Assembly (NCBI GenBank): GCA_001898855.1
Contig: MKVN01000022.1
Span: 9,883-73,882, forward strand
From: Micrococcales bacterium 73-13
Lineage (GTDB): Bacteria > Actinomycetota > Actinomycetes > Actinomycetales > Microbacteriaceae
DNA length: 64,000 bases
Direction: 5' to 3'
Shown: piece by piece, positions 39,750 to 61,418 of the stretch
How the letters are laid out: each line of letters begins with the position of its first letter
Position numbering within the stretch: position 1 is the first letter of the stretch
Translations under genes and position numbers: made by a program
Notes under the pieces: model-generated
What the model saw: only the letters and a program-made list of their open reading frames with translations
Database searches by the model: none
What the model was told of the DNA's origin: nothing

Positions 39750-40301
39750 TCAGGCCTCGTCGAGGTCGTCGATGTCGACGCCGTCGATGTCACCGCCGTG
39801 CGTCAGGCGCGGGCCGTCATCGTCGAGGTCGTCCTCGTCCAGATCGTCGAGATCGTCGTCTTCCTCGTCCAGATCGTCGTCTTCCTCATCCGGCTCGTCG
39901 TCCTCGTCGAGGGCGTCGTCCTCGCCGTCCGGGTCGTCCGTCTGCGCCTCGTCGACCGACTCCGCGGCCTCGGCCGCCGCCGCCTCCTGCTGGGCCTTCC
40001 ACTCCGCGAGCCGCACGGACCAGGGGATCCACTCGGGCGCGAGCAGGGCGTCGTCGCCGGGAATGAGCCCGAGCTCGAGCACGCTCGGCGCCTCGTCGTC
40101 CTGCTCCGCGATCGAGACGACCCAGGACCACCCGCGGTAGCCGGCCTGCGCGCTGGAGTAGACGACGTCCACGACACCGGCGGCGTCCTCGCGGACGCGG
40201 TCCTCGATCCAGTCGCCGACGTGCGCCGGCGAGGCGACCTCCGCGAGCGCCGACCGCGCGAGCTCGTCGTACCGGGAGGCGGATGACACGGGCTCAGGCA
40301 T
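39750..40301 (-). CDS. DUF3027-family protein with a poly-acidic C-terminal tail
   Basis: 183-aa ORF immediately downstream of, and overlapping by 8 nt, the cold-shock-domain gene. This csp-DUF3027 pairing is conserved in actinobacteria (family recalled from memory). Asp/Glu-rich tail. Confidence 0.75.
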   Translation of the reverse strand: MPEPVSSASRYDELARSALAEVASPAHVGDWIEDRVREDAAGVVDVVYSSAQAGYRGWSWVVSIAEQDDEAPSVLELGLIPGDDALLAPEWIPWSVRLAEWKAQQEAAAAEAAESVDEAQTDDPDGEDDALDEDDEPDEEDDDLDEEDDDLDDLDEDDLDDDGPRLTHGGDIDGVDIDDLDEA

Positions 40302-46779: not shown

Positions 46780-48449
46780 GCCGAGGGCTCCGCGGCGCGG
46801 GCGGCCTCGGCGCGGCGCACGTGGTCCCGGGCGTGCTCGACGGCGGGCGGCAGCTCGTCGAACAGGTGCTTGTGGTGCCGCAGCGAGTCGAGGATGCCGA
46901 CCCGCTTCGCGAGCGCGAGATGGCGCGCCTGGATCCCCTTGAGCAGGACGGTGACGCCGCGCCGCTCCAGCGCCTGCACGAGCTCGGTGATGACGCGCGC
47001 GCCGGTCGCGTCGAGGGAGCCGATCTGGGACATCCGCACGACGACCACCTCGACCCCGCCGTGCACCCGCTCGACCTCGGCGGCGACCGCCTCGGCCGCG
47101 CCGAAGAACATCGCGCCGTCGAGCCGGAACAGCGCGATCCGCTCGTCGCCGGCCTGCGCCGGCCCGGGCAGCGGCTCGCGCGACGCGCTGCCGGATCGCG
47201 CGAGGGCGCGCAGGGCGAGCACCGCCGCGACGACGAGGCCGATGGCGACGGCGATGATGAGGTCGAACGCGATCGTGACGACCGCGGTGAGCCCGAACAC
47301 GAAGGCGTCGCCCCGGCTCGCGCGGACCACCGCGCGCACCGTGGAGGGCGTGACCATCCGCACCGAGGTGACCATCAGCACCCCGGAGAGCGCGGCGAGC
47401 GGGATCTCGGCGACGACGGATGCGGCGAGGTAGACGACCAGCAGCAGCACGACCGCGTGCGTCACGGAGGCGAGGCGGGTGCGACCCCCGCTGCGCACGT
47501 TGACCGCGGTGCGCGCGATCGCGCCGGTGGCCGGCATGCCGCCGAACAGCCCGGACGCCACCGAGGCGAGGCCCTGGCCGACCAGCTCCCGGTCGGCGTC
47601 GACGTGGCCGGTGTCGGCGAGGGTCGAGGCGACGCGGGCCGAGAGCAGCGACTCGATCGCCGCGAGCGCGGCGACCGTCAGCGCCGGGGCGATCAGCTGC
47701 TGCACGGTCGGCCAGTCCAGCGGCGGGACCGAGGGCGGCGGGAGCGCCGAGGGCAGCGCGCCGATCCGGTCCACCGGCGCCTGGGCGAGGAACGCGACGA
47801 CCGACACCAGGATGATGGCGATGATCGAGCCGGGCAGATGGCGGTGGAGGAACGGCGCGGCGACCATCACGGCGGCGACCGCGGCGACGAGGCCGAGCGT
47901 CCAGGGCAGCACCGCGAGGTCCGCCATCGAGATCGACTGGATCGCGGCGACCAGCGCGTTCGTGCTGTGGTCCAGGCCGTTGAAGTCGCCGACCCCGAGC
48001 GCGTTCGGCACCTGCTGCAGGAAGATGATGACCGCGATGCCGAGGGTGAAGCCCTCGATCACCGGCCACGGGATGATCGTCACCAGCCGGCCGAGCTTCA
48101 GGAGCCCGACCACCAGGACGATGACGCCGGCGAGCAGGCTCACCGTCGCGACGGCTCCCACCCCGTGCGCGGCGACGATCGGCGCGAGCACGACGACCAT
48201 CGCGCCGGTGGGCCCGGAGACCTGGACGTTCGAGCCGCCGAACACCGCGGCGACGGCCCCCGCGACGATCGCCGTCACCAGTCCGGCGGCGGCGCCGACC
48301 CCGGAGGAGACGCCGAACGCGAGCGCGAGCGGCAGCGCCACGATGCCGACCGTGAGGCCGGCGAGCAGGTCGAGGCGCCAGGTGCGCGGCAGCGCCCGGT
48401 AGTCGTCCGGGCCCGGCACGAGCGAGCGGACGTATCCGACGAGCCTCAT
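46776..48449 (-). CDS. SulP-family anion transporter with C-terminal STAS domain
   Basis: 557-aa ORF. LLAGLTVGIVALPLALAFGVSSG, GPTGAMVVV, multi-TM core, and a STAS-like tail (LFRLDGAMFFGAAEAV...). Confidence 0.92.
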   Translation of the reverse strand: MRLVGYVRSLVPGPDDYRALPRTWRLDLLAGLTVGIVALPLALAFGVSSGVGAAAGLVTAIVAGAVAAVFGGSNVQVSGPTGAMVVVLAPIVAAHGVGAVATVSLLAGVIVLVVGLLKLGRLVTIIPWPVIEGFTLGIAVIIFLQQVPNALGVGDFNGLDHSTNALVAAIQSISMADLAVLPWTLGLVAAVAAVMVAAPFLHRHLPGSIIAIILVSVVAFLAQAPVDRIGALPSALPPPSVPPLDWPTVQQLIAPALTVAALAAIESLLSARVASTLADTGHVDADRELVGQGLASVASGLFGGMPATGAIARTAVNVRSGGRTRLASVTHAVVLLLVVYLAASVVAEIPLAALSGVLMVTSVRMVTPSTVRAVVRASRGDAFVFGLTAVVTIAFDLIIAVAIGLVVAAVLALRALARSGSASREPLPGPAQAGDERIALFRLDGAMFFGAAEAVAAEVERVHGGVEVVVVRMSQIGSLDATGARVITELVQALERRGVTVLLKGIQARHLALAKRVGILDSLRHHKHLFDELPPAVEHARDHVRRAEAARAAEPSA

Positions 48450-48838
48450 CCCGGGACCTGCTGCAGCCCGATCTCGGGCAGCGACTCCGTCGCGCTCAGC
48501 CGGTCCTGCGACTCCTCGAGGGCGAGGACGAGCAGCCGTCTGGCGACCGTGAGCAGCTGGGCGACCTCGGGGAAGGCGAGCCGGTAGTAGACGAAGCTCG
48601 CCCTCCGCTCGGAGACGACCAGCCGATGCCGGCGGAGCACGGCGAGATGCTGCGAGAGGTGCGAGGGCTCGAGCCCGGTCGCACGCATCAGCTCCGTCAC
48701 GGGGACCTCGTCGCCGCCGGCGAGGACCTCGAGGATCCGCACCCGCAGCGGATGCGCGAGGCCCTTGAACATGTCGGCCTTGACCTGATAGAGCGGCCGG
48801 GCGTCCTGCCAGTCGAGCTCGTCGCTCTGCGGATTCAC
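48446..48838 (-). CDS. ArsR/SmtB-family transcriptional regulator (Cys-free)
   Basis: This is the real part of the 648-aa track ORF. GTG start at 48838. FKGLAHPLRVRILEVLAGGDEVPVTELMRATGLEPSHLSQHLAVLRRHRLV. ATGA overlap with the SulP gene. The start codon is uncertain. Confidence 0.8.
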   Translation of the reverse strand: MNPQSDELDWQDARPLYQVKADMFKGLAHPLRVRILEVLAGGDEVPVTELMRATGLEPSHLSQHLAVLRRHRLVVSERRASFVYYRLAFPEVAQLLTVARRLLVLALEESQDRLSATESLPEIGLQQVPG

Positions 48839-48906
48839 AAACTCATCATATCGAGGCGGACGAGCGTCGATCGCCGACGCGGGCCCGGTCGGCCGCCGCC
48901 GCGGGC

Positions 48907-50313
48907 TCAGCGGCGGATGACCGGGCGCAGCGCCGCGAAGCGACGTCCCCGGATCGCCGACCACCACACCCCGGCGCCGTACGCCAGGTCGTCGATCCGG
49001 CGCAGCAGCCCGAACCGCACCGGGTCGAGGTCGGGCTCGAGCCGGACGTACTCGACCGCGGTGTCGGCGACCGCCGCGACGATCGCCGCGGTGCGCACTC
49101 GTCGCGAGCACACCGCGGCGACCAGGGTCGCCGGCCACCAGTGCCGCAGCAGCAGGGCGGAGGTCTGACCCGCCGCCGCGACCAGGCCCTGCCCGGCCAG
49201 TCGCAGCGCGACCGGGCCGGGTCGGCGCACGCCGTCGAGCCGCCGGGCGATCCGACGCGCCGCGATCGCCGTCGCCACCGCCGCGACCGGCAGCGACCAG
49301 CGTCGCTGCGCGAGCAGCGCCGCCATCGTCGCCGCGCTCCACGGCGCGAGCACCGCGGGGGCGATCGCCTCCGGATGGCGCTCCCCCAGCGCGGCGGCGG
49401 AGGTGCCGTAGGAGAACTTCGTCGCGACGAAGGCGCGGAGGCCGGTGCGGTGCTCGTGCGCGACGGCGACCGCCGGCTCGTAGCGCACCCGATGGCCGGC
49501 CGCGACGAGCCGCCAGACCAGGTCGACGTCCTCGCCGACCCGCATCCCGGCGTCGAAGCCCGCGCCGAGCGCCTCGACCCGGCCGACGAGGCAGGTGCTC
49601 GGCACCCAGCCGACGCGGCTGCCCGGCCGCACCGACGCCGCCTCGGCGCCGAGATCGAGGGAGGAGCGCGCCGCCTCGTACCGGGCGACCCAGCCGCCGC
49701 CGGCGTCGAGCGGGACGATCCTCGGCGCGACGAGGGCGACCAGCGGATCCTGGAAGTGCCGCAGCAGCGCGGGGATCGCGCCGGGCCCGAGCACGACGTC
49801 GGAGTCGGCGAACACGACGAACGGCGTCTCGACGTGCGCGAGGCCCAGGTTCCTCGCCGCGGCGGGACCCCGGTTCCGCCGGCTCGCGACGAGGCGCACG
49901 CCGTGCGCGGCGGCGACGCGACGCAGCTCCGCCGGCCGACGGGAGCCGTCGTCGACGACGACGACCCGGTCGGGCGCCGTGTGCGCCGTGAGCGCGACGA
50001 GCAGGCGATCGAGCTGTGGCGCGCGGTCGCGGATCGGCACCACCACGGTGTGATCCGCGTCGAGATCGGGGAGCCGGTCGAGATCGGGGAGCCGGTCGAG
50101 CACGGGGTCCGCGAGACCGGCCTCCAGCAGCCGGTCGGCGAGCACCGCGCCGACCGGCGTCGCGGCGCTGATCCGCCGGCCGTGCAGCGCACGTCGCGCC
50201 TTCGCGGAGAGCCGCAGCAGCCGGGTGGGCGAGCCGCCGATGAGCGCGGCGCCGCCGTCGAGCACCTCGGTGCGCGGTCCGAGCTCGACGAGGAATCCGG
50301 GCGGCAGGCTCAT
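48907..50313 (-). CDS. mftF: Mycofactocin biosynthesis glycosyltransferase MftF
   Basis: 468-aa ORF. GT2 core (VVVPIRDR..., VVVVDDGS, ARNLG, FADSDV) followed by a TM-rich C-terminal region. ATGA overlap with mftE. The call rests on context within a complete mft gene set. Confidence 0.88.
   Translation of the reverse strand: MSLPPGFLVELGPRTEVLDGGAALIGGSPTRLLRLSAKARRALHGRRISAATPVGAVLADRLLEAGLADPVLDRLPDLDRLPDLDADHTVVVPIRDRAPQLDRLLVALTAHTAPDRVVVVDDGSRRPAELRRVAAAHGVRLVASRRNRGPAAARNLGLAHVETPFVVFADSDVVLGPGAIPALLRHFQDPLVALVAPRIVPLDAGGGWVARYEAARSSLDLGAEAASVRPGSRVGWVPSTCLVGRVEALGAGFDAGMRVGEDVDLVWRLVAAGHRVRYEPAVAVAHEHRTGLRAFVATKFSYGTSAAALGERHPEAIAPAVLAPWSAATMAALLAQRRWSLPVAAVATAIAARRIARRLDGVRRPGPVALRLAGQGLVAAAGQTSALLLRHWWPATLVAAVCSRRVRTAAIVAAVADTAVEYVRLEPDLDPVRFGLLRRIDDLAYGAGVWWSAIRGRRFAALRPVIRR
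50059..50100 (-). repeat. Perfect in-frame 18-bp tandem duplication inside mftF
   Basis: GTCGAGATCGGGGAGCCG occurs at 50059-50076 and 50077-50094, followed by a partial third copy GTCGAG. It encodes DRLPDL-DRLPDL. Confidence 0.9.
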
Positions 50314-51002
50314 CCGACGAACCCCCTCGCCCGCTCGGTCGCGCTCGCGACCATGGCGCGCAGGAGCGCGGCGCCCTCCGCGGCGCTCGCACCGGTCGGG
50401 TCGCCGAGCACGCCGTTCGGCGCGACCGCCCGGACGCCCTCCGCGCGCAGCCGCGGCAGCAGCCCGGCGATCGGTTCGACGGCGCCGGGCTCCGCCGCGT
50501 CGAGCGCGACGAGGTCCGGACGCAGCTGGAGCAGCAGCGAGGTCTCGGCGCGGCCGGCGTGCGCGTCCGCGCCCCGCACGCCGCAGGGCAGCCAGGCGGT
50601 GGGCCGGCCCTCGGACTCGAGCAGCGCGACGACCGCGTCGAGGGTCGGCGCGTTCCCGCCGTGGCCGTTGACGAGGAGGGTGCGCGGCGCCCAGGCGCTC
50701 GCCGAGCGGACCAGCTCGACGAGCAGGGCGCGCAGCGCCCCGTGCCCGATCGAGACGGTGCCGGGGAAGCCCTCGTGCTCGCCGCTGGCGCCGTACGGCA
50801 CGGTCGGGCCGAGCACCGCGCCGACCCCGTCCTCGACGAGCGCGGCGACGAGGCGCTCGGCGACCGCCGCGGCGACGATCGCGTCGGTCGCGAGCGGGAG
50901 ATGCGGGCCGTGCTGCTCCGTGGAGCCGACCGGCACGACCAGCAGGTCGACGCCGGCCGCCTCGGGCCAGCGGAGCTCGGCGAGCCGGCGCACCTTCGTC
51001 AC
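50310..51002 (-). CDS. mftE: Mycofactocin precursor peptide peptidase MftE (creatininase family)
   Basis: 230-aa ORF with a GTG start. VVPVGSTEQHGPHLPLATD, GASGEHEGFPGT, VNGHGGN and HAGRAETS (creatininase-family metal ligands). Flanked by mftD and mftF. Confidence 0.9.
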   Translation of the reverse strand: MTKVRRLAELRWPEAAGVDLLVVPVGSTEQHGPHLPLATDAIVAAAVAERLVAALVEDGVGAVLGPTVPYGASGEHEGFPGTVSIGHGALRALLVELVRSASAWAPRTLLVNGHGGNAPTLDAVVALLESEGRPTAWLPCGVRGADAHAGRAETSLLLQLRPDLVALDAAEPGAVEPIAGLLPRLRAEGVRAVAPNGVLGDPTGASAAEGAALLRAMVASATERARGFVG

Positions 51003-51012
51003 CCGGCCGACG

Positions 51013-52248
51013 CTACCCGGCCGCGCGCGCCCGCGGCTTCCGGACGGCGGCCGCGGGCGGCTCGGGCGCGGCGCCGAGCACCCGGCCGAAGTCCGCCGGG
51101 ATGTGGAGATCGTCGGGGCCGAGCTCCGCGATCGACTGGTGCCCGAGGCCGAGCAGCGCGGAGTCGAGGCCCATGCGCAGCAGGTCGAGCACGTTCTCCA
51201 CGCCGGTCTGGCCGTTCGCCGCGAGGCCCCAGAGATAGGCCCGGCCGATCATGACCGCGCGGGCGCCGAGCGCCAGCGCCTTCGCGACGTCGCCGCCGCG
51301 GCGCACGCCGCCGTCGAGGAGCACCTCGATCTGGTCGCCGACACGCGCGGCGACGGCGGGGAGGCAGCGGATCGAGGCGGGGGTCGTGTCGAGGTTGTTC
51401 CCGCCGTGGTTCGACACGGAGACCGCGTCGACGCCGGCGTCGACGGCGCGCAGCGCGTCGTCGATCCGGGTGACGCCCTTGAGCAGCAGCGGACCGCCCC
51501 ACTCCCGCTTGAGCCAGGCGATGTCCTCCCACTGCGGCGGCGGCGTCTGCATCCACTCGTAGTACGCGGCGAAGAACGTCGGGGCGGCCCCGGTCTGCGG
51601 GTCGCGGAGGTTCGGCGCCGTGAGGTCGGGGAGGCCGCCGCCGGTGACGAACCGCCACGCCCAGGGGAGGTGGGTGATCCCCTCCCATTTCATGTCCCAC
51701 ATCGCCTTGAAGCTCATCCGCTCGGGGATCTGCGGGCTGCCCCAGTCGCGGCCGATCGAGAACGACCAGTCCGTCGTGACGATGAGCGCCTTCGCCCCCG
51801 CGGCCCTGGCCCGGTCCATGCGCTGGGCCATCTGCTCGCGGGTGCCCATCCAGTACAGCTGGTAGAAGGTGTTCGGGTTCGCCGCGACGACGTCCTCCAC
51901 CGGCTTCGAGGCGAACGAGGACAGACCCATGATCGTGCCGCGGTTGGCCGCCGCACGGGCCACGGCGACCTCGCCGTCCGGGTGCACCGCCTGCACGCCG
52001 GTCGGCGAGATCAGCACGGGCAGCGAGATCGGGACTCCGAGGACCGTCGTCCCGAGCTGGCGGTCAGGGCGATGCCCGGCGACGTGCGGCGCGAACTGGA
52101 GCTCCGCGAACGCGTTCATGTTGTCCTCGGGCGTGCGCCCGCGCTCGCTGCCGGCCACGAGGGCCGCGTAGACCGACGGCGGCAGGCGGCGCCGGGCCCG
52201 CCGCTGCGCCTCCAGGACGGTCTCGAACCACGGGTTCCGCTTCGCCAC
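51013..52248 (-). CDS. mftD: Pre-mycofactocin synthase MftD (FMN-dependent alpha-hydroxy-acid oxidase family)
   Basis: Start refined to GTG 52248 (VAKRNPWFETVLEAQRRARRRLPPSVY...), with GAGGAG 6 nt upstream. SNHGGNNLD, DGGVRRGGDV, GARAVMIGRAYLWGL. Confidence 0.9.
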   Translation of the reverse strand: MAKRNPWFETVLEAQRRARRRLPPSVYAALVAGSERGRTPEDNMNAFAELQFAPHVAGHRPDRQLGTTVLGVPISLPVLISPTGVQAVHPDGEVAVARAAANRGTIMGLSSFASKPVEDVVAANPNTFYQLYWMGTREQMAQRMDRARAAGAKALIVTTDWSFSIGRDWGSPQIPERMSFKAMWDMKWEGITHLPWAWRFVTGGGLPDLTAPNLRDPQTGAAPTFFAAYYEWMQTPPPQWEDIAWLKREWGGPLLLKGVTRIDDALRAVDAGVDAVSVSNHGGNNLDTTPASIRCLPAVAARVGDQIEVLLDGGVRRGGDVAKALALGARAVMIGRAYLWGLAANGQTGVENVLDLLRMGLDSALLGLGHQSIAELGPDDLHIPADFGRVLGAAPEPPAAAVRKPRARAAG

Positions 52249-52290: not shown

Positions 52291-52311
52291 ATGTGGCACT
52301 CGATGCCACAT
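52291..52311. promoter_or_regulatory. 21-bp perfect palindrome upstream of mftD; candidate second MftR operator
   Basis: ATGTGGCA-CTCGA-TGCCACAT. The core 52294-52308 is the exact reverse complement of 60766-60780 in the mftR/mftA intergenic region. It lies 43 nt upstream of the mftD GTG. A TAGACT -10-like hexamer on the minus strand is at 52278-52283. Confidence 0.6.
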
Positions 52312-52316
52312 TTATC

Positions 52317-53126
52317 TCAGTAGCTGCTCAGACCTCCGTCGACCACGAACGCGCCGCCGGTCGCCCACTTCGACTCGTCCGAGGCGAGGTAGACCATCAG
52401 GTTGGAGATCTCGCTCGGATCGATGAGCCCTGGCATCCACTTCGTGATCATCCCGTAGAGGTTCGGGTTCTCCTCGCGTCCCGGCTCGAAGCCGTCGCGC
52501 GCACCGACGCCCATCGGGGTGTCGACGCTGCCGGGATGCACGGTGTTGACGCGGATCCCGTCCTTGGCCAGCTCCATCGCGAGCGACTTCGCCAGGGCGA
52601 CCACGCCGAACTTCGACACGTTGTAGGCCATGTTGAACGGGCCCGCCTTGAGGCCGTTCGCCGAGCTGGTCATGATGATCGACCCGCCCCCGGCCGCGAG
52701 CAGCCCGTCGACGCCGGCGAGCACGGTGTTGTAGACCCCGGTGAGGTTGACGTCGAGGGTCGTCTGCCAGATCTCCGGGGTCTGCGCGTGCCAGGGACCG
52801 GTGATGTCGATGCCGGCGTTCGCGATGATCACGTCGAGCCGCCCGAGCCGGGCGACCGCGTCCGACACGAAGGCCTTCATCCCGGCGAGGTCGCGCACGT
52901 CGATCGCGCCGGCGACGATCCGGCGGCCGAGCGACTCGACCTGCCGGACCGTCTCCGCGAGCTCCCCGGCCGAGGCGGTCGGGTAGTTCATGTGCTCGAC
53001 CTGCGCCGGCGCGTCGGTCACGATGACGTCCGCGCCCTCCTCGGCCAGACGCACCGCGTGCGCCCGTCCCTGGCCGCGGCCCGCGCCCGTGATGAACGCG
53101 ACCTTGCCCTCCAGCCGACCGGGCAT
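52317..53126 (-). CDS. Mycofactocin-coupled SDR-family oxidoreductase (carveol dehydrogenase-like)
   Basis: Start refined to ATG 53126 (MPGRLEGKVAFITGAGRGQGRAHAVRLAEEGADVI...), overlapping the VOC gene stop (ATGA). The GKVAFITGA-RGQGR-HA N terminus and the NYP-A-ELAETVRQVE-LGRR insert are typical of the mycofactocin-associated SDR subfamily. Catalytic YNVSK. Confidence 0.85.
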   Translation of the reverse strand: MPGRLEGKVAFITGAGRGQGRAHAVRLAEEGADVIVTDAPAQVEHMNYPTASAGELAETVRQVESLGRRIVAGAIDVRDLAGMKAFVSDAVARLGRLDVIIANAGIDITGPWHAQTPEIWQTTLDVNLTGVYNTVLAGVDGLLAAGGGSIIMTSSANGLKAGPFNMAYNVSKFGVVALAKSLAMELAKDGIRVNTVHPGSVDTPMGVGARDGFEPGREENPNLYGMITKWMPGLIDPSEISNLMVYLASDESKWATGGAFVVDGGLSSY

Positions 53127-53632
53127 CACTGCGCGTCCGTGTAGCGCACCAGCTCGAGCTGGTTCCCCCACGGGTCGAGCACGTAGTTGACCTCGATGCC
53201 CGGCCAGGCGCCGGACTCGTCCTCGCCGGCGGGGACCAGGATCGGCTGCGCGGCCTCGGTGCCGCCGTGGGCGAGGATCTGCTCGACGGCCTTCGGGATG
53301 TCGGAGACGACGAAGGCGATGTGGTGCCCGCCGACGTCGTTGTTCCTCGGCGCCGAGGGGTTGCCCGCCGGACGCAGGTACTCGAAGAACTCGATCGGCC
53401 GGCCGTCGCCGAAGCCGACGAACGCGATGTTGTAGAGCGCGTCCGGGACTGCGACGTGCGTGCCGGTCCAGTCCTCGTCGCCCTCGGACATCGCGCGCGA
53501 GTCGAACGGGCCGAGGCGGTAGAGCACGCGGCCGCCGAGGGCCTTCGTGTAGAACTCGATCGCGGCCTCGAGGTCGGGCACGGTGAGCCCGATGTGGTCG
53601 ATGGCTCCGATGAGCGGAGGAGCTGCAGTCAC
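53126..53632 (-). CDS. VOC (glyoxalase/bleomycin resistance/dioxygenase) family protein
   Basis: This is the real part of the 211-aa track ORF. GTG at 53632 (VTAAPPLIGAIDHIGLTVPDLEAAIEFYTKALGG...). HHIAF and DPWGNQLELV. The start codon is uncertain. Confidence 0.75.
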   Translation of the reverse strand: MTAAPPLIGAIDHIGLTVPDLEAAIEFYTKALGGRVLYRLGPFDSRAMSEGDEDWTGTHVAVPDALYNIAFVGFGDGRPIEFFEYLRPAGNPSAPRNNDVGGHHIAFVVSDIPKAVEQILAHGGTEAAQPILVPAGEDESGAWPGIEVNYVLDPWGNQLELVRYTDAQ

Positions 53633-53720
53633 GCGAGTGTCGCCTTTCTCGTCTCGCCGGTCTCGGCAGCGCCGATCGCGGCAGTGACGCCCCCGCGGGT
53701 CCGCGCGGACGATGCCCGCC

Positions 53721-53770
53721 ATGTTACAGGAAGATGACGCAGTGTTCATTTTTCTTGCCAATGTTCATTT
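53721..53770. promoter_or_regulatory. AT-rich control region with three phased (A/G)TGTT(A/C)A repeats between divergent operons
   Basis: ATGTTACA at 53721, GTGTTCAT at 53742 and ATGTTCAT at 53761, spaced 21 and 19 bp apart. The 9-mer TGTTCATTT is exactly repeated at 53743-53751 and 53762-53770. AATGTTCATT is a near-palindrome (AATG/CATT). Confidence 0.4.
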
Positions 53771-53821
53771 ATGCGTCTAGCGTGTCCGCAGCGTCCCGCT
53801 ATCCATCGAAAGGAAGTCCCA

Positions 53822-54811
53822 ATGAAGCGCTCCTTCCAACTGCTCGCGGTCGCGGCCGCGGCGGTGGCCGGCCTGAGCCTGGCCGCATGCTCGTCCGGCG
53901 CCCCGGCGCCGAGCGAGGCCCCGACCTCGACCGAGCCGGCCGTGTCCTACGTGCCGGTCAACGTCGGCGTCGGCTCCGACGCCGGCTACTCGGCCTTCTT
54001 CGTCGCGGACCAGCAGGGTCTGTTCAAGAAGGCCGGCCTCGACGTCACGCTCACCCCGTTCGCCACCGGCGGCGACGCGCTCGCCGCGCTCAGCGCCGGC
54101 CAGATCCAGATGACGCAGAGCTCACCGGCGACGATCACCACGACCATCGCGAACAACCCGAGCATCACCGCCTTCGTCCAGACCGTGGACATCTCGAAGG
54201 TCAACAAGGTGGTCCTGCGCGACGGCATCGAGTCGGCCAAGGACGTGAAGAACTTCGGCTACATCGCCGGGCTCAGCCAGTACATGGCCTACACGTACTT
54301 CGAGGCCAACGGGGTCGACCCCTCGACGATCAACTGGATCGCGGCCGGCGCGGGCGACATGCCCGCCCTGATCCAGCGCGGCGACATCGACGGCTTCTTC
54401 CTGTGGGAGCCCTGGCCGACCAACGTGACCACCGCCGGCGGCGGGCACATCGTGGCGTCCTCGGCGGACTTCCCGGACATGGTGCCCGTCATGGTGAACT
54501 GGGTCGCCTCCACCGACGCCTGGCTCGAGGCCAACGAGCCGACGGCGCAGGCCATCACCAAGGTGCTCGGCGAGGCCATCGACATCATCAACGCCGACCC
54601 GAAGGTCGCCGCGGCCGCGGTGGAGAAGGCCGTCGCGATCAAGGCCGACGACGCCCTCGTCATGGTCGAGCGGCTGAGCTTCGGCCTCAAGCCGATCACG
54701 AGCGACGTCGTCGCCGCGACGCAGAAGATCGGCGACTTCTTCGTGTCCACCGGAGCCATCAAGGCCACCCCGGACCTGAAGAGCGAACTGGTCCTCGACT
54801 GGTCCTGGTAG
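53822..54811 (+). CDS. ABC transporter substrate-binding lipoprotein (NMT1/THI5-like, NitT/TauT family)
   Basis: Start refined to ATG 53822 (MKRSFQLLAVAAAAVAGLSLAAC lipobox), preceded by AGGAAG. The overall pattern resembles aliphatic sulfonate/nitrate/taurine-type binding proteins. Confidence 0.85.
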   Translation: MKRSFQLLAVAAAAVAGLSLAACSSGAPAPSEAPTSTEPAVSYVPVNVGVGSDAGYSAFFVADQQGLFKKAGLDVTLTPFATGGDALAALSAGQIQMTQSSPATITTTIANNPSITAFVQTVDISKVNKVVLRDGIESAKDVKNFGYIAGLSQYMAYTYFEANGVDPSTINWIAAGAGDMPALIQRGDIDGFFLWEPWPTNVTTAGGGHIVASSADFPDMVPVMVNWVASTDAWLEANEPTAQAITKVLGEAIDIINADPKVAAAAVEKAVAIKADDALVMVERLSFGLKPITSDVVAATQKIGDFFVSTGAIKATPDLKSELVLDWSW

Positions 54812-54814
54812 GTC

Positions 54815-55660
54815 ATGTCGTCCACCATCACGAGCGACCGCGATGCCGGGGGACTCCCCGGCATCGCGGTCGCGATGAACTCCGTCGCGATCGCGTTCGG
54901 CGACCTCACCGTGCTGCACGACGTCGACTTCCGGGTGGAGCCCGGCGAGTTCGTCTGCCTGCTCGGGCCGAGCGGCTGCGGCAAGTCGACGCTGCTCGCG
55001 GCGATCGCCGGCTTCGTCGAGCTGTCCGCGGGCGAGGTCGTCTGCAACGACGAGCCGGTCAAGGGCATCAACCGGCATGCCGGCGTCGTCTTCCAGTCCA
55101 GCGAGGCGCTGTTCGAGTGGCTGACCGCCGAGCAGAACGTCGCCTACGGGCCCAGGATGCACGGGAGGGGCAAGCTGGAGAGCCGCCGCGTCGCGGCGGA
55201 CTTCCTCGCGAAGGTCGGCCTCACCCCCGCCGCGAAGAAGTACCCGCGCGAGCTGTCGGGCGGCATGAAGCAGCGCGTGCAGATCGCCCGCGTGCTCGCG
55301 AACGAGCCGCGACTCGTGCTGATGGACGAGCCGTTCGGCGCACTCGACGCGCAGACCCGGCACGTCCTCCAGGAGGAGCTGGTCCGGCTCTGGCAGCGCA
55401 CCGGCTGCAGCATCGTCTTCGTCACCCACGACATCGACGAGTCGGTGATCCTCGCCGACCGGATCGTCGTGATGACCGCCGGCCCGTCGGCGAGGATCAA
55501 GAGCGTCTACCGGGTGGACGCCGCGCGGCCGAGATCGCGGCAGGACGTCGCGGACCTCTACGACCGCATCCAGGAGGACATCCGGGTCGAGGTCGCGCAG
55601 AGCCTGCTGAACCAGGGTCTCGAGATCGACGCCGGCGTCACCGGAGGCGAGGCCCGATGA
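54815..55660 (+). CDS. ABC transporter ATP-binding protein (NitT/TauT family)
   Basis: 281-aa ORF. GPSGCGKST, LSGGMKQRVQIARVL, LVLMDEPFGALD, VFVTHDIDE. Confidence 0.92.
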   Translation: MSSTITSDRDAGGLPGIAVAMNSVAIAFGDLTVLHDVDFRVEPGEFVCLLGPSGCGKSTLLAAIAGFVELSAGEVVCNDEPVKGINRHAGVVFQSSEALFEWLTAEQNVAYGPRMHGRGKLESRRVAADFLAKVGLTPAAKKYPRELSGGMKQRVQIARVLANEPRLVLMDEPFGALDAQTRHVLQEELVRLWQRTGCSIVFVTHDIDESVILADRIVVMTAGPSARIKSVYRVDAARPRSRQDVADLYDRIQEDIRVEVAQSLLNQGLEIDAGVTGGEAR

Positions 55661-56433
55661 GACGTCGCAAGGGGTTCTGGCCCAACCTGCTGAGCACCCT
55701 CGGCACCTGGGCGATCTCCATCACCGTCGGCCTGCTGCTGTGGTGGCTGGCCTCCTCGCTGCTCGGCCCGTACATCATGCCCTCGCCGTGGGCGACGGTG
55801 GTCGGACTCGGCGAGCTCAGCGACCGGGGAACGCTCTGGCCGTCGATCGGCGCCTCGATGTTCCGCATCATCACCGGGTGGACGATCGGCCTGGTGGTCG
55901 GCGCGCCCATCGGCATCCTGATGGGGCGCATCCGGCTGGTCCGCAACTTCCTCGATCCGTACGTCGAGATCCTCCGGTTCATCCCGGCGATCGCGCTCGT
56001 CACGGTCATGGTCGTGTGGTTCGGCATCGGCGAGCAGAGCAAGATCGCGCTCATCGTCTACACCTCGATCTTCGTCGTCGTGATCAGCACCACCGACGCG
56101 ACGCTGCGGATCTCGAACGACAAGGTGCTCGCCGCGCGCAGCCTCGGCGCCGGGAACACCCAGGTGCTCTGGACCGTGGTGCTCCCGTCGGCGGTGCCCG
56201 GCATCATCACCGGCGCACGGCTCGCCATGGCCAACAGCTTCCTGACGATCGTCTCCGCGGAGATGGTCGCCGCGCGCGAGGGCCTCGGCACGATCATCTG
56301 GACCTCGTACAGCTTCGGCCACATCGACTGGATCTTCGCCGGCATCGTGACCCTCGGAATCCTCGGGTTCTGCTGCGACCGCATCCTGCGCATCATCTCG
56401 ACCACGCTGCTCGCCAGGTTCGGCGTGAAATGA
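55657..56433 (+). CDS. ABC transporter permease (NitT/TauT family)
   Basis: This is the real part of the 899-aa track ORF. The ATG at 55657 overlaps the ATPase stop (ATGA). EAA-like loop ARSLGAGNTQVLWTVVLPSAVPGIITGARLA. About 6 TM helices. Confidence 0.88.
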   Translation: MRRRKGFWPNLLSTLGTWAISITVGLLLWWLASSLLGPYIMPSPWATVVGLGELSDRGTLWPSIGASMFRIITGWTIGLVVGAPIGILMGRIRLVRNFLDPYVEILRFIPAIALVTVMVVWFGIGEQSKIALIVYTSIFVVVISTTDATLRISNDKVLAARSLGAGNTQVLWTVVLPSAVPGIITGARLAMANSFLTIVSAEMVAAREGLGTIIWTSYSFGHIDWIFAGIVTLGILGFCCDRILRIISTTLLARFGVK

Positions 56434-56477
56434 CCCCAATGAAGAACGCGATAGCAAGCAAAGGAAATGAGCAACGA

Positions 56478-57059
56478 ATGACGACTGACGAGATCGCCGA
56501 CCTGAAGCACCGCCTGCACGTCCTCGAGTCCGAGGCCGACATCCGCCGGCTGATGGCGCGATACATGTGGCTGTGCGACACCCCGCTGCCGGAGCACCCC
56601 GGCGACCTCGGGCCGCAGGAGCGCATCAGGCTCATCCTCGAGCTGTACTCGAAGGACGCGGTCTGGGAGGGCGTCGGCCCGTTCTACGACGACCAGTTCG
56701 GCTACTCGAAGGGCATGGCGCAGCTCACCGAGCACTTCGAGGGCTTCTTCGCCGGCAAGGGCGAGGGGCAGAACGCGACCTCCGACCTGCTGCTCAACGC
56801 GCACTATCTGACGACCGAGCAGATCCACGTCCACGAGGACGGCACGACCGCCGACGGCCAGTGGATCCACATGCAGCCATGGCTGTTCAGCGATGGCTCC
56901 GCCCTGCTGCGCTCCTCCCGGCTGAACAACGCGTTCAAGATCGAGGACGGCGTCTGGAAGATGTCCCGCTACCGCACGGAGAACGTGTTCGTCGCACCGC
57001 TGCCGGCGTGGTTCGCGTCGAACTACACGGCGAAGTCAGTGCTCACGCAGGTCGATTGA
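56478..57059 (+). CDS. SnoaL-like / NTF2-family protein
   Basis: This is the real part of the 439-aa track ORF. ATG 56478 (MTTDEIADLKHRLHVLESEADIRRLMARYMWLCD) follows the AT-rich AAAGGAAATGAG. ATG 56430, which overlaps the permease stop, is an alternative start. Confidence 0.75.
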   Translation: MTTDEIADLKHRLHVLESEADIRRLMARYMWLCDTPLPEHPGDLGPQERIRLILELYSKDAVWEGVGPFYDDQFGYSKGMAQLTEHFEGFFAGKGEGQNATSDLLLNAHYLTTEQIHVHEDGTTADGQWIHMQPWLFSDGSALLRSSRLNNAFKIEDGVWKMSRYRTENVFVAPLPAWFASNYTAKSVLTQVD

Positions 57060-57072
57060 GCCGGGTCACGCT

Positions 57073-58278
57073 GTGACCCATCAGCCCGGGCGGGCGTCGG
57101 AGCAGGCATTCTCCGACGCCCGCCGGCGCATCGGCGCCGACGAGTTCCATGCCTGGGTCGCGGTCGCCGACCCGGGGCAGGCCGCCGCGTGGCATCCCGG
57201 ACCCGGACCCCTGGAGGGGATCGCGGTGGGCGTGAAGGACGTCATCGACCTCGCCGGGATGCCGACGAGATGCGGCTCGCCCATCACGCTGGACACCCCG
57301 GTCGCGCGGTCCGCGGTGCTCGTCGAGCGGCTCATCGGTCTGGGCGCGATGCCCGTCGGCAAGACCGTGACCACCGAGTTCGCCTTCTTCGCCCCTGGTC
57401 CGACGCAGAATCCGCGAGCACCCGGGCACACCCCGGGCGGGTCCTCGAGCGGCTCGGCCGCCGCGGTCGCGGCCGGGCACGTCCCGCTCGCGCTCGGCAG
57501 CCAGACCGCCGGATCGCTGATCCGGCCCGCCGCGTACTGCGGCGTGGCCGGCCTGGTGCTCCGCCACGACGCGGTGCCGCTGGAGGGCTTCTCCGGACTC
57601 GCCCCCTCGCTCGACGCCGCCGGGCTGATGGCGCCGACCGTCGCCGGGCTGCGCGCCGCGCACGAGGCCCTGTTCCCCGCCCCGCCCCGCCCGAGCCGGG
57701 CGGCGCGGGCGCTCGTCTGGCACGGCGACGACCTCGACGAGGTGTCGCCCGACATGCGCGCCGCGCTCGAGCGCGCGGCGCAGGCCCTGCGGGGGCTCGG
57801 ACTGGATGTCGAGCCGCTCGGGGACGCGCTCCCGATGCGGTCCCTCGCCGCCGATCACCTGACGGTGATGCAGGCCGAGGTCGCTCGCGAGCGTCAGGAC
57901 CTGATGGCCGCCCGCGAGCGCCTGAGCCCTCAGCTGCGCGGACTGCTCGACGCGGGCGCCGCCGTCCCGACGGCGGACTACGCCGCCGCCATCGCGAGGA
58001 CGACGGCGCAGCGCGCCCGGATCGCCGAGCTGCTCGGCGAGGACACCGTGGTCCTCGGCCCGGCCGCCCCGGGCGCCGCGCCCGCAGGGCTCGGGGCCAC
58101 CGGATCCCCCGTGATGAGCCGACCGTGGCAGCTGCTCGGGCTCCCGCAGCTCGCGGTGGCCGGCAGCGTCGACGCGGCCGGGCTCCCGCTCGGGGTGCAG
58201 CTCGTCGCCCGCGGCGGCGCCGAGACGATGCTGCTGACGGCCGGAGAACTCCTGGAGGCTCGCCTTGCCGAGCGCTGA
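57073..58278 (+). CDS. Amidase (amidase-signature family)
   Basis: 401-aa ORF with a GTG start. GVKDVIDLAGMPT (catalytic Lys), GGSSSGSAAAVAAG and GSQTAGSLIRPAAYCG (Ser-cisSer-Lys triad context). Confidence 0.9.
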   Translation: MTHQPGRASEQAFSDARRRIGADEFHAWVAVADPGQAAAWHPGPGPLEGIAVGVKDVIDLAGMPTRCGSPITLDTPVARSAVLVERLIGLGAMPVGKTVTTEFAFFAPGPTQNPRAPGHTPGGSSSGSAAAVAAGHVPLALGSQTAGSLIRPAAYCGVAGLVLRHDAVPLEGFSGLAPSLDAAGLMAPTVAGLRAAHEALFPAPPRPSRAARALVWHGDDLDEVSPDMRAALERAAQALRGLGLDVEPLGDALPMRSLAADHLTVMQAEVARERQDLMAARERLSPQLRGLLDAGAAVPTADYAAAIARTTAQRARIAELLGEDTVVLGPAAPGAAPAGLGATGSPVMSRPWQLLGLPQLAVAGSVDAAGLPLGVQLVARGGAETMLLTAGELLEARLAER

Positions 58279-58327
58279 TCGCCGACGCACTACTCCGGCC
58301 GGCCGTCGGTCGAATACCTTGGGGAGC

Positions 58328-59029
58328 ATGACCGACACGGTGGAAGATCGAACCGACGCCGTGCCCCGCCTCGGCGTACGCGAACGCAAGGCCCACGCGA
58401 CCCGGCGGCGGCTGCTCGCGTCCGCGCTCGACCTCATGGCGCGCGAGGGGACGGACGCCGTCACGGTCCGTGTCGTCGCCGACCACTCGGACATCGCCAC
58501 CGGCACCTTCTACAACTACTTCCCGTCGGCGGAGGCCCTCATCGAGGCCGTCATCGACCTCGAGATCGGCACCATGGGCCGGCGGCTCGACGCCCTGTCG
58601 AACGGCATCGACGATCCGGCCGACGAGCTCTCCGCCGCGCTCCGGCATCTGGTCCGCGCCTCGATCACCGATCCGACCTGGGGCTGGCTGCTCGTGCGGC
58701 TCGGCTCGGAGAGCGAGTGGGTCGCCACCCTGCTCGGCGCACGGCTGGCTCGGACCGTCGAGCGCGGCGCCACGACGGGACGGTTCATCGTCAAGGACGT
58801 GCCCACCGCGACCGCGATGACCCTCGGCGCCCTCGTCGCGGCGACCCGCGTGTTCCTCGATGCGGGTCGTGCGCTCGGCGAGGCCGAGTCGTCCTTCGTG
58901 GAGAACCAGCTGCGCGCACTCGGCATCACGCCGGCCGAGGCGGAGCGGATCGCGAACCGCCGTCTTCCCGAGCTCCCGATCATCGCGGACCAGGGCGCGA
59001 TGTCGATCGTGCGGATCATCGCGCTCTGA
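58328..59029 (+). CDS. TetR-family transcriptional regulator
   Basis: Start refined to ATG 58328 (MTDTVEDRTDAVPRLGVRERKAHATRRRLLASALDLMAREGTDAVTVRVVADHSDIATGTFYNYFPS), preceded by GGGGAG. Typical TetR N-terminal HTH. Confidence 0.88.
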   Translation: MTDTVEDRTDAVPRLGVRERKAHATRRRLLASALDLMAREGTDAVTVRVVADHSDIATGTFYNYFPSAEALIEAVIDLEIGTMGRRLDALSNGIDDPADELSAALRHLVRASITDPTWGWLLVRLGSESEWVATLLGARLARTVERGATTGRFIVKDVPTATAMTLGALVAATRVFLDAGRALGEAESSFVENQLRALGITPAEAERIANRRLPELPIIADQGAMSIVRIIAL

Positions 59030-59060: not shown

Positions 59061-60323
59061 CTAGACGCGACTGGGCGCGAAGTCCGCGAGCGGGTCGTCC
59101 TGGAGGTCGTTGACCGGCATGCCGCCGTTGCTGATCCGGGCGAGGTTCGGCTTGATGTCCAGGGCCGCGGCGGGGTCGATCGGACGGGTGCCGAGCCGCA
59201 CCGGCACCTTCCCGGACTTCGAGTAGCGGATGGTCCGGTGCGAGTGGTCCTGGCCGGGGCGCGGGTGGCTCGCATCGTCGTCGCGCGCCGCGAGCAGCTC
59301 CTCGCCGTAGCCCTGCACGCACTCGGGGTCGGGGCCGTCGAGCGGGAGCCCGGTGAAGAACTTCGCCGCCATGCAGCCGCCCTTGCAGGTGTCGTAGAAC
59401 TTGCAGGACGAGCAGGCGCCGCCCGACTGGGGCGACCGCAGCCGCTGGAAGAGCTCGGAGCCCTGCCAGACGCGCTGGAAGCCGCCTTCGCCGCGCACAT
59501 TGCCCGCGAGGAACTCCTCGTGGATCGCGAACGGGCAGGCGTAGACGTCGCCGATCGGGTCGATCAGGCAGACCACCCGGCCCGCGCCGCAGAGGTTGAG
59601 CCCCGGCAGCGCCTGGCCGAAGGCCGACAGGTGGAAGAAGGAGTCGCCGGTGAGCACGCCGTCGCCGTGCGCGACGAGCCAGTCGTAGAGGATCCGCTGC
59701 TGCTCGGGCAGCGGGTGCAGCTCGTCCCACACGTCGGCGCCGCGGCCGGAGGGGCGCAGCCGGGTGAGCCGCAGCTGCGCGCCGTAGCGGTCGGCGATCG
59801 CCTTGAACTCGTCGAGCTGCGGGATGTTCTGCCGGGTGCAGACCACGGAGAGCTTGAAGTTCCGCATGCCGGCGGCCTGCAGGTTCTCCATCGCGCGGAT
59901 CGCGGTGTCGTAGGAGCCCGGCCCGCGCACCCAGTCGTTCACCTCGGGCGTCGCGCCGTCGAGCGAGATCTGGATGTCGAGGTAGTCGTTGCGCGCGAGG
60001 CGCTCGGCGACCTCGGGGGTGATCTTCACGCCGTTCGTCGAGAACTTCACCCCGACGTGGTGGCTCGTCGCGTAGTCGACGAGCTCCCAGAAGTCCGAGC
60101 GCACGGTCGGCTCGCCGCCGCCGATGTTCACGTAGAACACCTGCATCCGCTCGAGCTCGTCGATGACCGCCTTGCACTCCTCGGTCGTCAGCTCGCGCGG
60201 ATCCCGGCGGCCGGAGCTCGACAGGCAGTGCACGCAGGAGAGGTTGCAGGCGTAGGTGAGCTCCCAGGTCAGGCAGATCGGGGCGTCGAGGCCGTACTCG
60301 AAGAGGTCGACGAGCCGGCTCAT
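59061..60323 (-). CDS. mftC: Mycofactocin radical SAM maturase MftC (radical SAM/SPASM)
   Basis: 420-aa ORF. CLTWELTYACNLSCVHC (CxxxCxxC) and SPASM cysteines (CGAGRVVC, CPF, CSSCKFYDTCKGGC). ATGA overlap with mftB. Confidence 0.95.
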   Translation of the reverse strand: MSRLVDLFEYGLDAPICLTWELTYACNLSCVHCLSSSGRRDPRELTTEECKAVIDELERMQVFYVNIGGGEPTVRSDFWELVDYATSHHVGVKFSTNGVKITPEVAERLARNDYLDIQISLDGATPEVNDWVRGPGSYDTAIRAMENLQAAGMRNFKLSVVCTRQNIPQLDEFKAIADRYGAQLRLTRLRPSGRGADVWDELHPLPEQQRILYDWLVAHGDGVLTGDSFFHLSAFGQALPGLNLCGAGRVVCLIDPIGDVYACPFAIHEEFLAGNVRGEGGFQRVWQGSELFQRLRSPQSGGACSSCKFYDTCKGGCMAAKFFTGLPLDGPDPECVQGYGEELLAARDDDASHPRPGQDHSHRTIRYSKSGKVPVRLGTRPIDPAAALDIKPNLARISNGGMPVNDLQDDPLADFAPSRV

Positions 60324-60586
60324 GCCGCCCGCTCCACGAGCATCGAGGAGCGCTCGAGCGCCCCGAGCGCGGCCGCGAACCGCGGCAGATCGGCCTCGCC
60401 CACCCCGGCGTCGGCGCAGGCGACCCTGGCCGTCGGCGCCTCGTCGAGGCGCTGGACGACGTCGAGCAGGGCGCGGTCCTTCAGGAAGGAGAGCTTGCGC
60501 GTGCCGAAGTGGTAGACGAGCGCCCCGAAGGGCTCGGGGCGGATCGACACCTGGGGGTGGACCGCCCAGGCTCGGTCGAGATCCAT
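60320..60586 (-). CDS. mftB: Mycofactocin biosynthesis chaperone MftB (RRE-type peptide-binding protein)
   Basis: MDLDRAWAVHPQVSIRPEPFGALVYHFGTRKLSFLKD matches the MftB N terminus as I remember it. The ATG at 60586 is preferred; the track's GTG at 60613 is an alternative start. Confidence 0.88.
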   Translation of the reverse strand: MDLDRAWAVHPQVSIRPEPFGALVYHFGTRKLSFLKDRALLDVVQRLDEAPTARVACADAGVGEADLPRFAAALGALERSSMLVERAA

Positions 60587-60617
60587 GGCGGGAACGCCGG
60601 ACGCGATGGGCACGGCG

Positions 60618-60713
60618 TCAGTAGACGCCGCACATCCCGTCGATCGAGACCTCCTCGACGAGCTCCTCGGCGGTCACGACGTCCTCGACGTCGACGGTCT
60701 GCGTGCTGTCCAT
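60618..60713 (-). CDS. mftA: Mycofactocin precursor peptide MftA
   Basis: Not in the ORF track because it is too short. ATG at 60713-60711 is preceded by GAGGAA 6 nt upstream. Translation: MDSTQTVDVEDVVTAEELVEEVSIDGMCGVY-stop, ending in the canonical IDGMCGVY. The stop is 4 nt before the longest possible mftB start. Confidence 0.93.
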   Translation of the reverse strand: MDSTQTVDVEDVVTAEELVEEVSIDGMCGVY

Positions 60714-60765
60714 GATCGGTTCCTCAGCTTCGAAGTCGGCCACAGCGGGCGGTGAGTACCTAATC

Positions 60766-60780
60766 TGGCATCGAGTGCCA
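60766..60780. promoter_or_regulatory. TGGCA-N5-TGCCA palindrome in the mftR/mftA divergent region; candidate MftR operator
   Basis: TGGCATCGAGTGCCA lies 53-67 nt upstream of the mftA ATG and just upstream of mftR. An identical 15-mer in inverted orientation is at 52294-52308. A TTGGCA -35-like hexamer overlaps it on the mftA strand, and TAATCT (60761-60766) is a -10-like hexamer on the mftR strand. Confidence 0.55.
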
Positions 60781-60800
60781 ATATGCGCAAGTGGAGCACA

Positions 60801-61418
60801 ATGACATCCATGGAACGCTCAGGGGCGCGACCCGGGGAGCCGCGACGGAGCACTCGCGCCGTGACCAGCACCGCCGAGCTGAGTCACATCGGCCTGCGGC
60901 TCTTCCTCGAGCGCGGCTTCGAGGCGACGACGGTCGACGACATCGCGGCCGCGGCCGGCATCGGGCGGCGGACGTTCTTCCGCTACTTCCCGTCGAAGAA
61001 CGACCTCGCCTGGGGCGACTTCGACGCGCTCGTCGCGTCGATGCGCGAGCATCTCGCCGCCACCCCGGCCGAGCTGCCGATGATCGCCGCGCTCCGGGTC
61101 GCCATCGTCGAGTTCAACCGCTTCCCGGTCGAGGAGATCGAGTACCACCGGCAGCGGATGCGGCTCATCCTGAACGCGCCCGCCCTCGTGGGGCACTCGG
61201 CGCTGCGCTATCAGAGCTGGCGCACCGCCATCGCGGAGTTCGTCGCGGCGCGCGCCGGCGGGACCCCGGACGACCTGCTGCCGAGCACCGTCGGCTCCGT
61301 GATGCTGGGGCTCGCGCTCGGCGCCTACGCCTACTGGCTCGCGCATCCCGAGACCGAGCTCGTGACGGCGATCGAGACCGCCTTCGACGAGCTCGGCGCG
61401 GCGTTCGGCGACGCGTGA
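60801..61418 (+). CDS. mftR: Mycofactocin system transcriptional regulator MftR (TetR family)
   Basis: Track ORF 60783-61418. ATG 60801 is preferred (GGAG 4 nt upstream, clear of the palindrome); 60783 and 60810 are alternatives. HTH TTVDDIAAAAGIGRRTFFRYFPSKNDL. Divergent from mftA. Confidence 0.88.
   Translation: MTSMERSGARPGEPRRSTRAVTSTAELSHIGLRLFLERGFEATTVDDIAAAAGIGRRTFFRYFPSKNDLAWGDFDALVASMREHLAATPAELPMIAALRVAIVEFNRFPVEEIEYHRQRMRLILNAPALVGHSALRYQSWRTAIAEFVAARAGGTPDDLLPSTVGSVMLGLALGAYAYWLAHPETELVTAIETAFDELGAAFGDA

Follow-up and report, generated by a model that had tools for sequence, protein, structure and literature searches.

Organisation of the mycofactocin gene cluster

The window, by which we mean the whole 64-kb stretch of DNA analysed here, carries a mycofactocin (mft) gene cluster in two separate halves. 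Genes were assigned by NCBIfam and Pfam searches, together with the gene calls on the 111-kb metagenome contig ENA ERZ778028 NODE_325, and every mft assignment scored above the curated equivalog cut-off. The features of the locus are the following:

48446-48838: gene for an ArsR regulator
48907-50313, minus strand: mftF (TIGR03965, 422.5 bits)
50310-51002, minus strand: mftE (TIGR03964, 286.7 bits)
51013-52248, minus strand: mftD (TIGR03966, 649.8 bits), with a GTG start; the gene calls of the source contig include exactly this protein
52291-52311, no strand assigned: predicted MftR box 2, a perfect 21-bp palindrome, ATGTGGCA-CTCGA-TGCCACAT
52317-53126, minus strand: gene for a mycofactocin-coupled short-chain dehydrogenase, SDR (TIGR03971, 311.3 bits against a cut-off of 300)
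53126-53632, minus strand: VOC/glyoxalase-family gene (Pfam Glyoxalase), directly upstream of the SDR gene on the mftD strand
53822-59029, plus strand: opposite-strand block encoding an ABC substrate-binding protein, ATPase and permease, a SnoaL-like protein, an amidase and a second TetR regulator
58328-59029, plus strand: the second TetR gene, within that block
59061-60323, minus strand: mftC, radical SAM maturase (TIGR03962, 653.6 bits)
60320-60613, minus strand: mftB (TIGR03967, 106.7 bits)
60618-60713, minus strand: mftA, precursor peptide ending in ...IDGMCGVY (TIGR03969, 45.3 bits against a cut-off of 25)
60763-60783, no strand assigned: predicted MftR box 1, core TGGCATCGAGTGCCA at 60766-60780, in the mftR/mftA divergent region
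60783-61418, plus strand: mftR, TetR-family repressor (TIGR03968, 253.2 bits against a cut-off of 224.9)
61415-62917, plus strand: mftG, mycofactocin dehydrogenase (TIGR03970, 412.9 bits against a cut-off of 387.45), with GMC oxidoreductase Pfam domains

One half of the cluster thus comprises mftG and mftR diverging from mftABC, the other the VOC gene, the SDR gene and mftDEF, and the 5.2-kb opposite-strand block lies between them. Because the start of mftG overlaps the stop of mftR (61415-61418), these two genes can be read as an operon that leads away from box 1 and diverges from mftABC. The position of mftG next to mftR looks different from the published scheme for Mycolicibacterium smegmatis, which lists mftG alongside mftA-F. 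The start of mftR itself is uncertain, the candidates being ATG codons at 60783, 60801 or 60810 and the GTG at 60861 that was called on the source contig. Among 45 homologues, the helix-turn-helix region of MftR is its most conserved part (70%, compared with 45% in the C-terminal domain). In the other half, the VOC and SDR genes overlap by a single nucleotide (53126), and mftD is preceded by a Shine-Dalgarno sequence, GAGGAG, at 52259-52254.

Since the opposite-strand block separates the two halves, transcription from the mftA promoter cannot reach mftDEF. In none of the 160 comparison loci listed does such a block stand between mftC and mftD; at the thresholds used, its genes had no homologues there except for the ABC ATPase, which was matched in two of the loci. 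It looks like a lineage-specific insertion. G+C content is 0.65-0.70 over 54-57 kb, while the window average is about 0.74.

Several other sequence features were noted in the window. The divergent VOC and ABC binding-protein genes are separated by 189 nt of A+T-rich DNA, which contains the direct repeats AGTGTTCATTT (53741-53751) and AATGTTCATTT (53760-53770), 19 nt apart, and a related CATGTTAC at 53720-53727; the repeats at 53720-53770 may serve the second TetR as its operator. At 54834-54873, just past the stop of the binding-protein gene (54811) and inside the 5' end of the called ABC ATPase gene, the 18-bp arms of a perfect inverted repeat enclose a 4-nt loop (GCGACCGCGATGCCGGGG ... CCCCGGCATCGCGGTCGC). 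Homology of the ATPase starts only at about residue 19, so that this hairpin may be intercistronic and the ATPase start miscalled. AT-skew peaks at 25001-26000 (0.33) and at 47001-50000 (0.21-0.29), and the count of recurring 15-mers brought up a short CGACGATCTGGACGAGGAAGACGACGATC-like tandem repeat at 39832-39873 with periods of about 21 and 30 nt.

A palindrome upstream of mftD shares its core with the mftR/mftA divergent region

The 68-nt non-coding gap between the SDR gene and mftD, one of the few intergenic gaps here, contains the sequence ATGTGGCACTCGATGCCACAT at 52291-52311, in which perfect 8-bp arms flank the 5-nt spacer CTCGA. A preliminary description of this DNA had reported such a 21-bp palindrome and had placed it 5 nt past the SDR stop and upstream of the mftD GTG at 52248, and both points are confirmed: the SDR stop codon (TGA) occupies 52319-52317, 5 nt from box 2, and the centre of the box lies 53 nt upstream of the GTG. 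Its arms exceed the length required by the motif by 3 bp and come closer to perfect symmetry than those of box 1.

The core of box 2 is TGGCACTCGATGCCA at 52294-52308, the exact reverse complement of 60766-60780 (TGGCATCGAGTGCCA) in box 1, so that the inverted 15-nt identity of the two cores described earlier, spacer included, was reproduced. Box 1 is centred 60 nt upstream of the mftA ATG, in keeping with the description, which had put both copies some 50 nt ahead of the leading gene of an mft half-operon. Compared with box 1 relative to mftA, box 2 is inverted relative to mftD, and each of the two boxes combines one TGGCAC half-site with one TGGCAT half-site. From the column frequencies of the family, the probability that independent boxes share this uncommon spacer is about 0.02.

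That the motif does not occur elsewhere in the window, as had been stated from inspection, was borne out by three kinds of scan. Allowing up to three mismatches to the 15-mer gave a sole extra match in the 64-kb window, which was unrelated; the pattern TGGCA-N5-TGCCA with up to one mismatch returned only box 1 and box 2; and a weight matrix trained on 61 boxes from other genomes gave 26.2 bits to box 1, 21.0 bits to box 2 (against a training median of 30.9) and 2.9 bits to the third-best site. No further box was therefore found upstream of the VOC and SDR genes (53633-53821) or in the rest of the window, where this 2.9-bit site was the best.

The preliminary description had also argued that an exact 15-mer recurrence is very unlikely by chance. 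Put so generally the argument was rejected, as 412 distinct 15-mers recur in the window, whose G+C content is 74%, and 13 palindromes of the 8-N5-8 type are present. It does stand in conditional form: for this particular, relatively A+T-rich 15-mer, about 9e-5 further copies are expected in the window, and we used this expectation together with the weight matrix instead. The flanks, which had been described as partly agreeing, share N-ATT on one side only, and alignment of the 20-nt flanks of the two boxes was no better than that of shuffled sequences (p = 0.79 and 0.32). A recent segmental duplication of the mftA promoter was rejected on the basis of these flanks and of the inverted orientation of box 2 relative to its gene. 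The term "duplicated", applied earlier to the operator, has no support, as the two sites show no homology outside the core.

These results bear on the reading that box 2 is a chance recurrence, or the decaying and non-functional relic of a promoter duplication. The many recurring 15-mers and palindromes of this G+C-rich window would agree with it, as would the inversion of box 2 with respect to its gene and the lack of an mftD box in the closest relatives listed. However, the expectation for this specific 15-mer is minute, box 2 sits in one of the few intergenic gaps and directly 5' of mftD, and its core is intact, with arms more perfect than those of box 1. A duplication relic should moreover have kept homology in its flanks, where none was found, and the position is enriched across the family, as described below. 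We consider this reading very improbable.

The core is identical to the footprinted MftR operator of M. smegmatis

The operator of MftR has been defined by DNase I footprinting upstream of mftA in Mycolicibacterium smegmatis mc2 155 (Omft; Mendauletova & Latham, J Biol Chem 2022, PMC8728441). Its sequence is 5'-TCCATTCTGGCACTCGATGCCATATAT, that is, TCCATTC-TGGCACTCGATGCCA-TATAT, and the palindrome T-N2-GGCA-N5-TGCC-N2-A was reported for 83 mycobacteria (PMC8728441). For the contiguous clusters of mycobacteria a single such site is published, 5' of mftA; in M. smegmatis it spans -79 to -53, and there long-chain acyl-CoA was shown to relieve the repression by MftR (PMC8728441). Studies of mycofactocin regulation have been confined to mycobacteria, in which the one operator stands before a contiguous mftA-F operon.

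The core found in the window is identical to that of Omft at 15 of 15 positions, including the non-palindromic spacer. Box 2 keeps the mycobacterial pattern with its outer T and A (ATGTGGCA...TGCCACAT), both boxes lie ahead of the start of an mft gene by about 50-80 nt (here -53 for mftD and -60 for mftA), and the gene for a cognate TIGR03968 regulator is close by. Read on the mftA strand, box 1 has the orientation in which Omft is printed; we assume that the paper gives Omft in the sense of mftA. The differences are that here a second site stands before mftD, that the cluster is split and the organism Microbacteriaceae-like, and that box 2 is inverted with respect to its gene, has 8-bp arms and follows the stop codon of a gene on the same strand by 5 nt.

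For Rv0691c, the MftR homologue of Mycobacterium tuberculosis, PMC8728441 and PMC6398593 cite work on a regulon by ChIP-seq and by regulatory network studies. As they appear in those citations, the Rv0691c targets differ from the present case in being network inferences and in belonging to a contiguous cluster. A second operator inside an mft cluster is not described in the literature found on MftR and Rv0691c; likewise, for operators at mftD, mftC or SDR genes, the literature found has only the single site 5' of mftA in mycobacteria. KstR of mycobacteria provides an example of a TetR-family regulon with multiple operators. The likeness lies in one TetR repressor with a lipid-derived effector acting on several transcription units through one palindromic box, whereas the family, the motif and the pathway are different, so that the analogy is one of logic only.

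MftR-type boxes precede mftD, mftC and SDR genes in other genomes

For comparison we used the surroundings of MftD homologues in 80 loci from genomes and 80 from metagenomes, all taken from the matches listed and labelled L001-L161. Among these matches MftD identity reached 81% (Gryllotalpicola) and 79%; the nearest relatives belong to the Microbacteriaceae. In the 80 genome loci (1.48 Mb) the perfect pattern TGGCA-N5-TGCCA occurs at 24 sites, and at 21 of them an mft gene, mftR or a mycofactocin-type SDR gene follows within 250 nt; such positions make up 3.5% of the sequence (binomial p = 4e-28). The weight matrix, which was symmetrised over 21 nt and has the consensus T[AT][AT]-TGGCAC-YSR-GTGCCA-[AT][AT]A, was then applied with a hit defined as at least 12 bits. 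Over all 160 loci listed (2.24 Mb) it gave 116 hits, and 104 of them are followed within 250 nt by a mycofactocin-system gene; the closest such gene was mftR in 43 cases, mftA in 22, mftD in 21, an SDR gene in 10, mftB in five, mftC in two and mftG in one. Two or more boxes were present in 21 of the loci. The ATG and CAT flanks of box 2 deviate from the T[AT][AT] of the family consensus, which lowers its score below the training median.

Boxes in front of mftD were found in several arrangements that resemble the one described here. In Compostimonas suwonensis (L004) the order is mftABC ... SDR, box, mftDEF, as in the window, and the similarly split clusters of a Rhodoglobus locus (L015), L049 and L110 have a box before mftD at their end. 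Three low-G+C Microbacteriaceae-like contigs have a box between divergent mftR and mftD, without mftABC between these genes (L003 at 1189, L084 at 9921 and L086 at 9922). In Nesterenkonia haasae (L041; boxes at 8529 and 17068) one box precedes mftCDEF and another lies between divergent mftR and mftAB about 8 kb away, so that each part has its own. Other examples at mftD, mftC or SDR genes come from two Leucobacter loci (L010 and L009) and from Microbacterium marinilacus (L039). In Spirillospora (L018, 14359) and Actinomadura rifamycini (L025, 14298) the box is upstream of a mycofactocin-type SDR gene that itself lies downstream of mftF, an arrangement which, judged from sequence, suggests that MftR also controls enzymes that use the cofactor. 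A strong box at 15557 in L078 has no long ORF starting nearby.

The second box is not universal. Among the closest relatives listed, no mftD box was found in L001, L002 and L082 (81%, 78% and 79% MftD identity), and the cluster of L082 is contiguous. About 10 of 26 split clusters have an mftD box and about 16 do not. The idea that a second box occurs only where opposite-strand genes interrupt the cluster was not borne out, as judged with a crude gene caller based on G+C at third codon positions. Since boxes recur at mft genes across the comparison loci, the mftD box is, on this comparative sequence evidence, an instance of a widespread arrangement and neither a peculiarity of this contig nor a dispersed repeat.

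The same survey speaks to whether box 2 could be a dispersed, REP-like repeat or the operator of another regulator, such as the second TetR (58328-59029) or the ArsR protein (48446-48838). Two further regulators are indeed encoded within 7 kb. Yet the 15-mer has only two copies in the 64-kb window, both in 5' regions of mft genes, and the preliminary description had held that its occurrence at many unrelated sites would point to a REP-like element. No such spread was seen in the window or in the 160 loci listed, where just two loci share the exact 15-mer, each time before a mycofactocin-system gene (an SDR gene in L018 and, in the same orientation as in the window, mftD in L087). Boxes in the comparison loci listed also occur without homologues of the second TetR, none of which was found in these box-bearing loci, and the two copies of (A/G)TGTTCATTT at 53741-53770 are the more natural candidate for a site of that protein. 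Of all the readings discussed here, this is the one to which we give the least credence.

Promoter geometry and proposed mode of repression

In other Actinobacteria the box stands in a fixed register with its promoter. In 50 of the 61 boxes a TANNNT -10 hexamer (for example TAGAAT, TACTCT or TAGTCT) starts exactly 2 nt past the box, towards the regulated gene, and this register is shared by many families. The two boxes described here differ from this majority, since no -10 at +2 was found at box 1 or at box 2. At box 2 the sequence TAGACT (52283-52278, minus strand), whose presence on the mftD strand had been described correctly, starts at +11 and is the only TANNNT within 30 nt downstream of the box on that strand. 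From its position TAGACT is a candidate -10, which would place box 2 at about -40 to -20.

The accompanying proposal that one arm of the box supplies a -35-like hexamer did not hold, because GTGGCA (52309-52304) is separated from TAGACT by 20 nt, outside the usual 16-19 nt, and a scan for consensus promoters of the sigma-70 type gave none at box 1 or box 2. Of the earlier claim that mftDEF has its own MftR-controlled promoter, the second operator is sustained, as the Omft core, the cognate MftR and the recurrence in other genomes speak for it; the -35 assignment fails, and the separate promoter is a candidate. The missing -10 at box 2 is no argument against its function, because box 1, which must serve mftA and mftR, lacks it too; promoters of this lineage may differ from the family geometry.

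An alternative to promoter occlusion is that no promoter exists in the SDR-mftD gap and that MftR bound at box 2 stops RNA polymerase elongating through a VOC-SDR-mftDEF transcript. Transcription would then come from the region upstream of the VOC gene (53633-53821), the SDR would be constitutive and biosynthesis conditional. The arrangement of VOC, SDR and mftD on one strand, with a 1-nt overlap between the first two and 68 nt between the last two, is consistent with such a block to elongation, as are the lack of a canonical -10 abutting box 2 and of a consensus promoter in the scan, and the many loci whose boxes fall inside or beside the stretch transcribed at the 5' end of mftR. Against it stand TAGACT, a good TANNNT at a distance that puts box 2 over the -35 region, and the relatives, in which 13 of 18 mftD boxes have a clear -10 of their own. 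In addition, TetR-family dimers usually act as promoter-occluding repressors. We regard a block to elongation as possible but doubtful as an account of box 2; with respect to the mode alone, we lean slightly towards occlusion of a local promoter, with TAGACT as -10 and the box over the -35, over a pure read-through roadblock.

The palindrome could also act mainly in RNA, as a 3' stem-loop that ends or stabilises the VOC-SDR transcript, in which case its 15-mer identity with the mftA region would be incidental. Box 2 begins 5 nt past the SDR stop and folds into a 9-pair hairpin of -12.3 kcal/mol (z = -4.1), a value reached by none of 200 shuffled sequences, and the 3 bp by which its arms exceed the needs of the box are those that depart from the family flank consensus. 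On the other hand, no U-tract follows and the terminator scan gave zero hits; the core is that of a footprinted protein-binding site; in box 1 the same core lies in a divergent promoter region without an upstream gene end and folds weakly (-5.8 kcal/mol, z = -0.3); and other mftD boxes have no same-strand gene end nearby, as in the three loci in which the box separates mftR from mftD (L003, L084 and L086). A role mainly at the RNA level is in our view improbable. Two specific candidates were also discarded: an intrinsic terminator at box 1 or box 2, where the scan found none and the stable stem of box 2 has no T-run, and a known RNA family, as there was no Rfam match over 48-62 kb at E <= 1.

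A combination of both roles seems unlikely, if less so than RNA function by itself. Box 2 DNA would be the MftR operator while its RNA, as a 9-bp stem, would end or protect the VOC-SDR transcript. If this were true, expression of the mycofactocin-consuming enzyme would be insulated from that of the biosynthetic genes. On this broader reading, the boxes at mftD, mftC and mycofactocin-type SDR genes would make up an MftR regulon of many sites in Actinobacteria outside the mycobacteria, of which the literature found has no description.

A probable second MftR operator in the split cluster

Taken together, the sequence comparisons lead us to favour the reading that MftR has a second functional operator at box 2, before mftDEF, and we put its probability at about 0.85. 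The preliminary description had arrived at a second MftR operator in this split cluster, and the identity of the core with the footprinted Omft, the presence of a cognate mftR and the mftD boxes of other genomes support it. Box 2 shows the four properties of an MftR operator that can be examined in sequence, namely the core match, the 5' location, the cognate MftR and a box that is conserved elsewhere, if not universally. It is a fresh instance of the known MftR-operator element, and as such an expected extension rather than a surprise.

In the regulation that we propose, an MftR dimer on box 2 would repress mftDEF, while box 1 would control both mftABC and mftR-mftG. By analogy with M. smegmatis, binding of long-chain acyl-CoA to MftR would release the two boxes together and both halves of the cluster would be turned on. 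The binding of MftR at box 2, the mode of repression and the effector are all points that we infer.

The picture of how TetR-type repressors act is unchanged by this finding. What it adds is that the same repressor box recurs before the detached parts of broken-up clusters and before some mycofactocin-dependent SDR genes, so that MftR regulons of organisms other than mycobacteria can be predicted by a simple sequence rule. Among the cultured relatives, Compostimonas suwonensis, Leucobacter and Microbacterium marinilacus are suited to testing it. All these data suggest that the biosynthesis and the use of mycofactocin are co-regulated by one acyl-CoA-responsive repressor.
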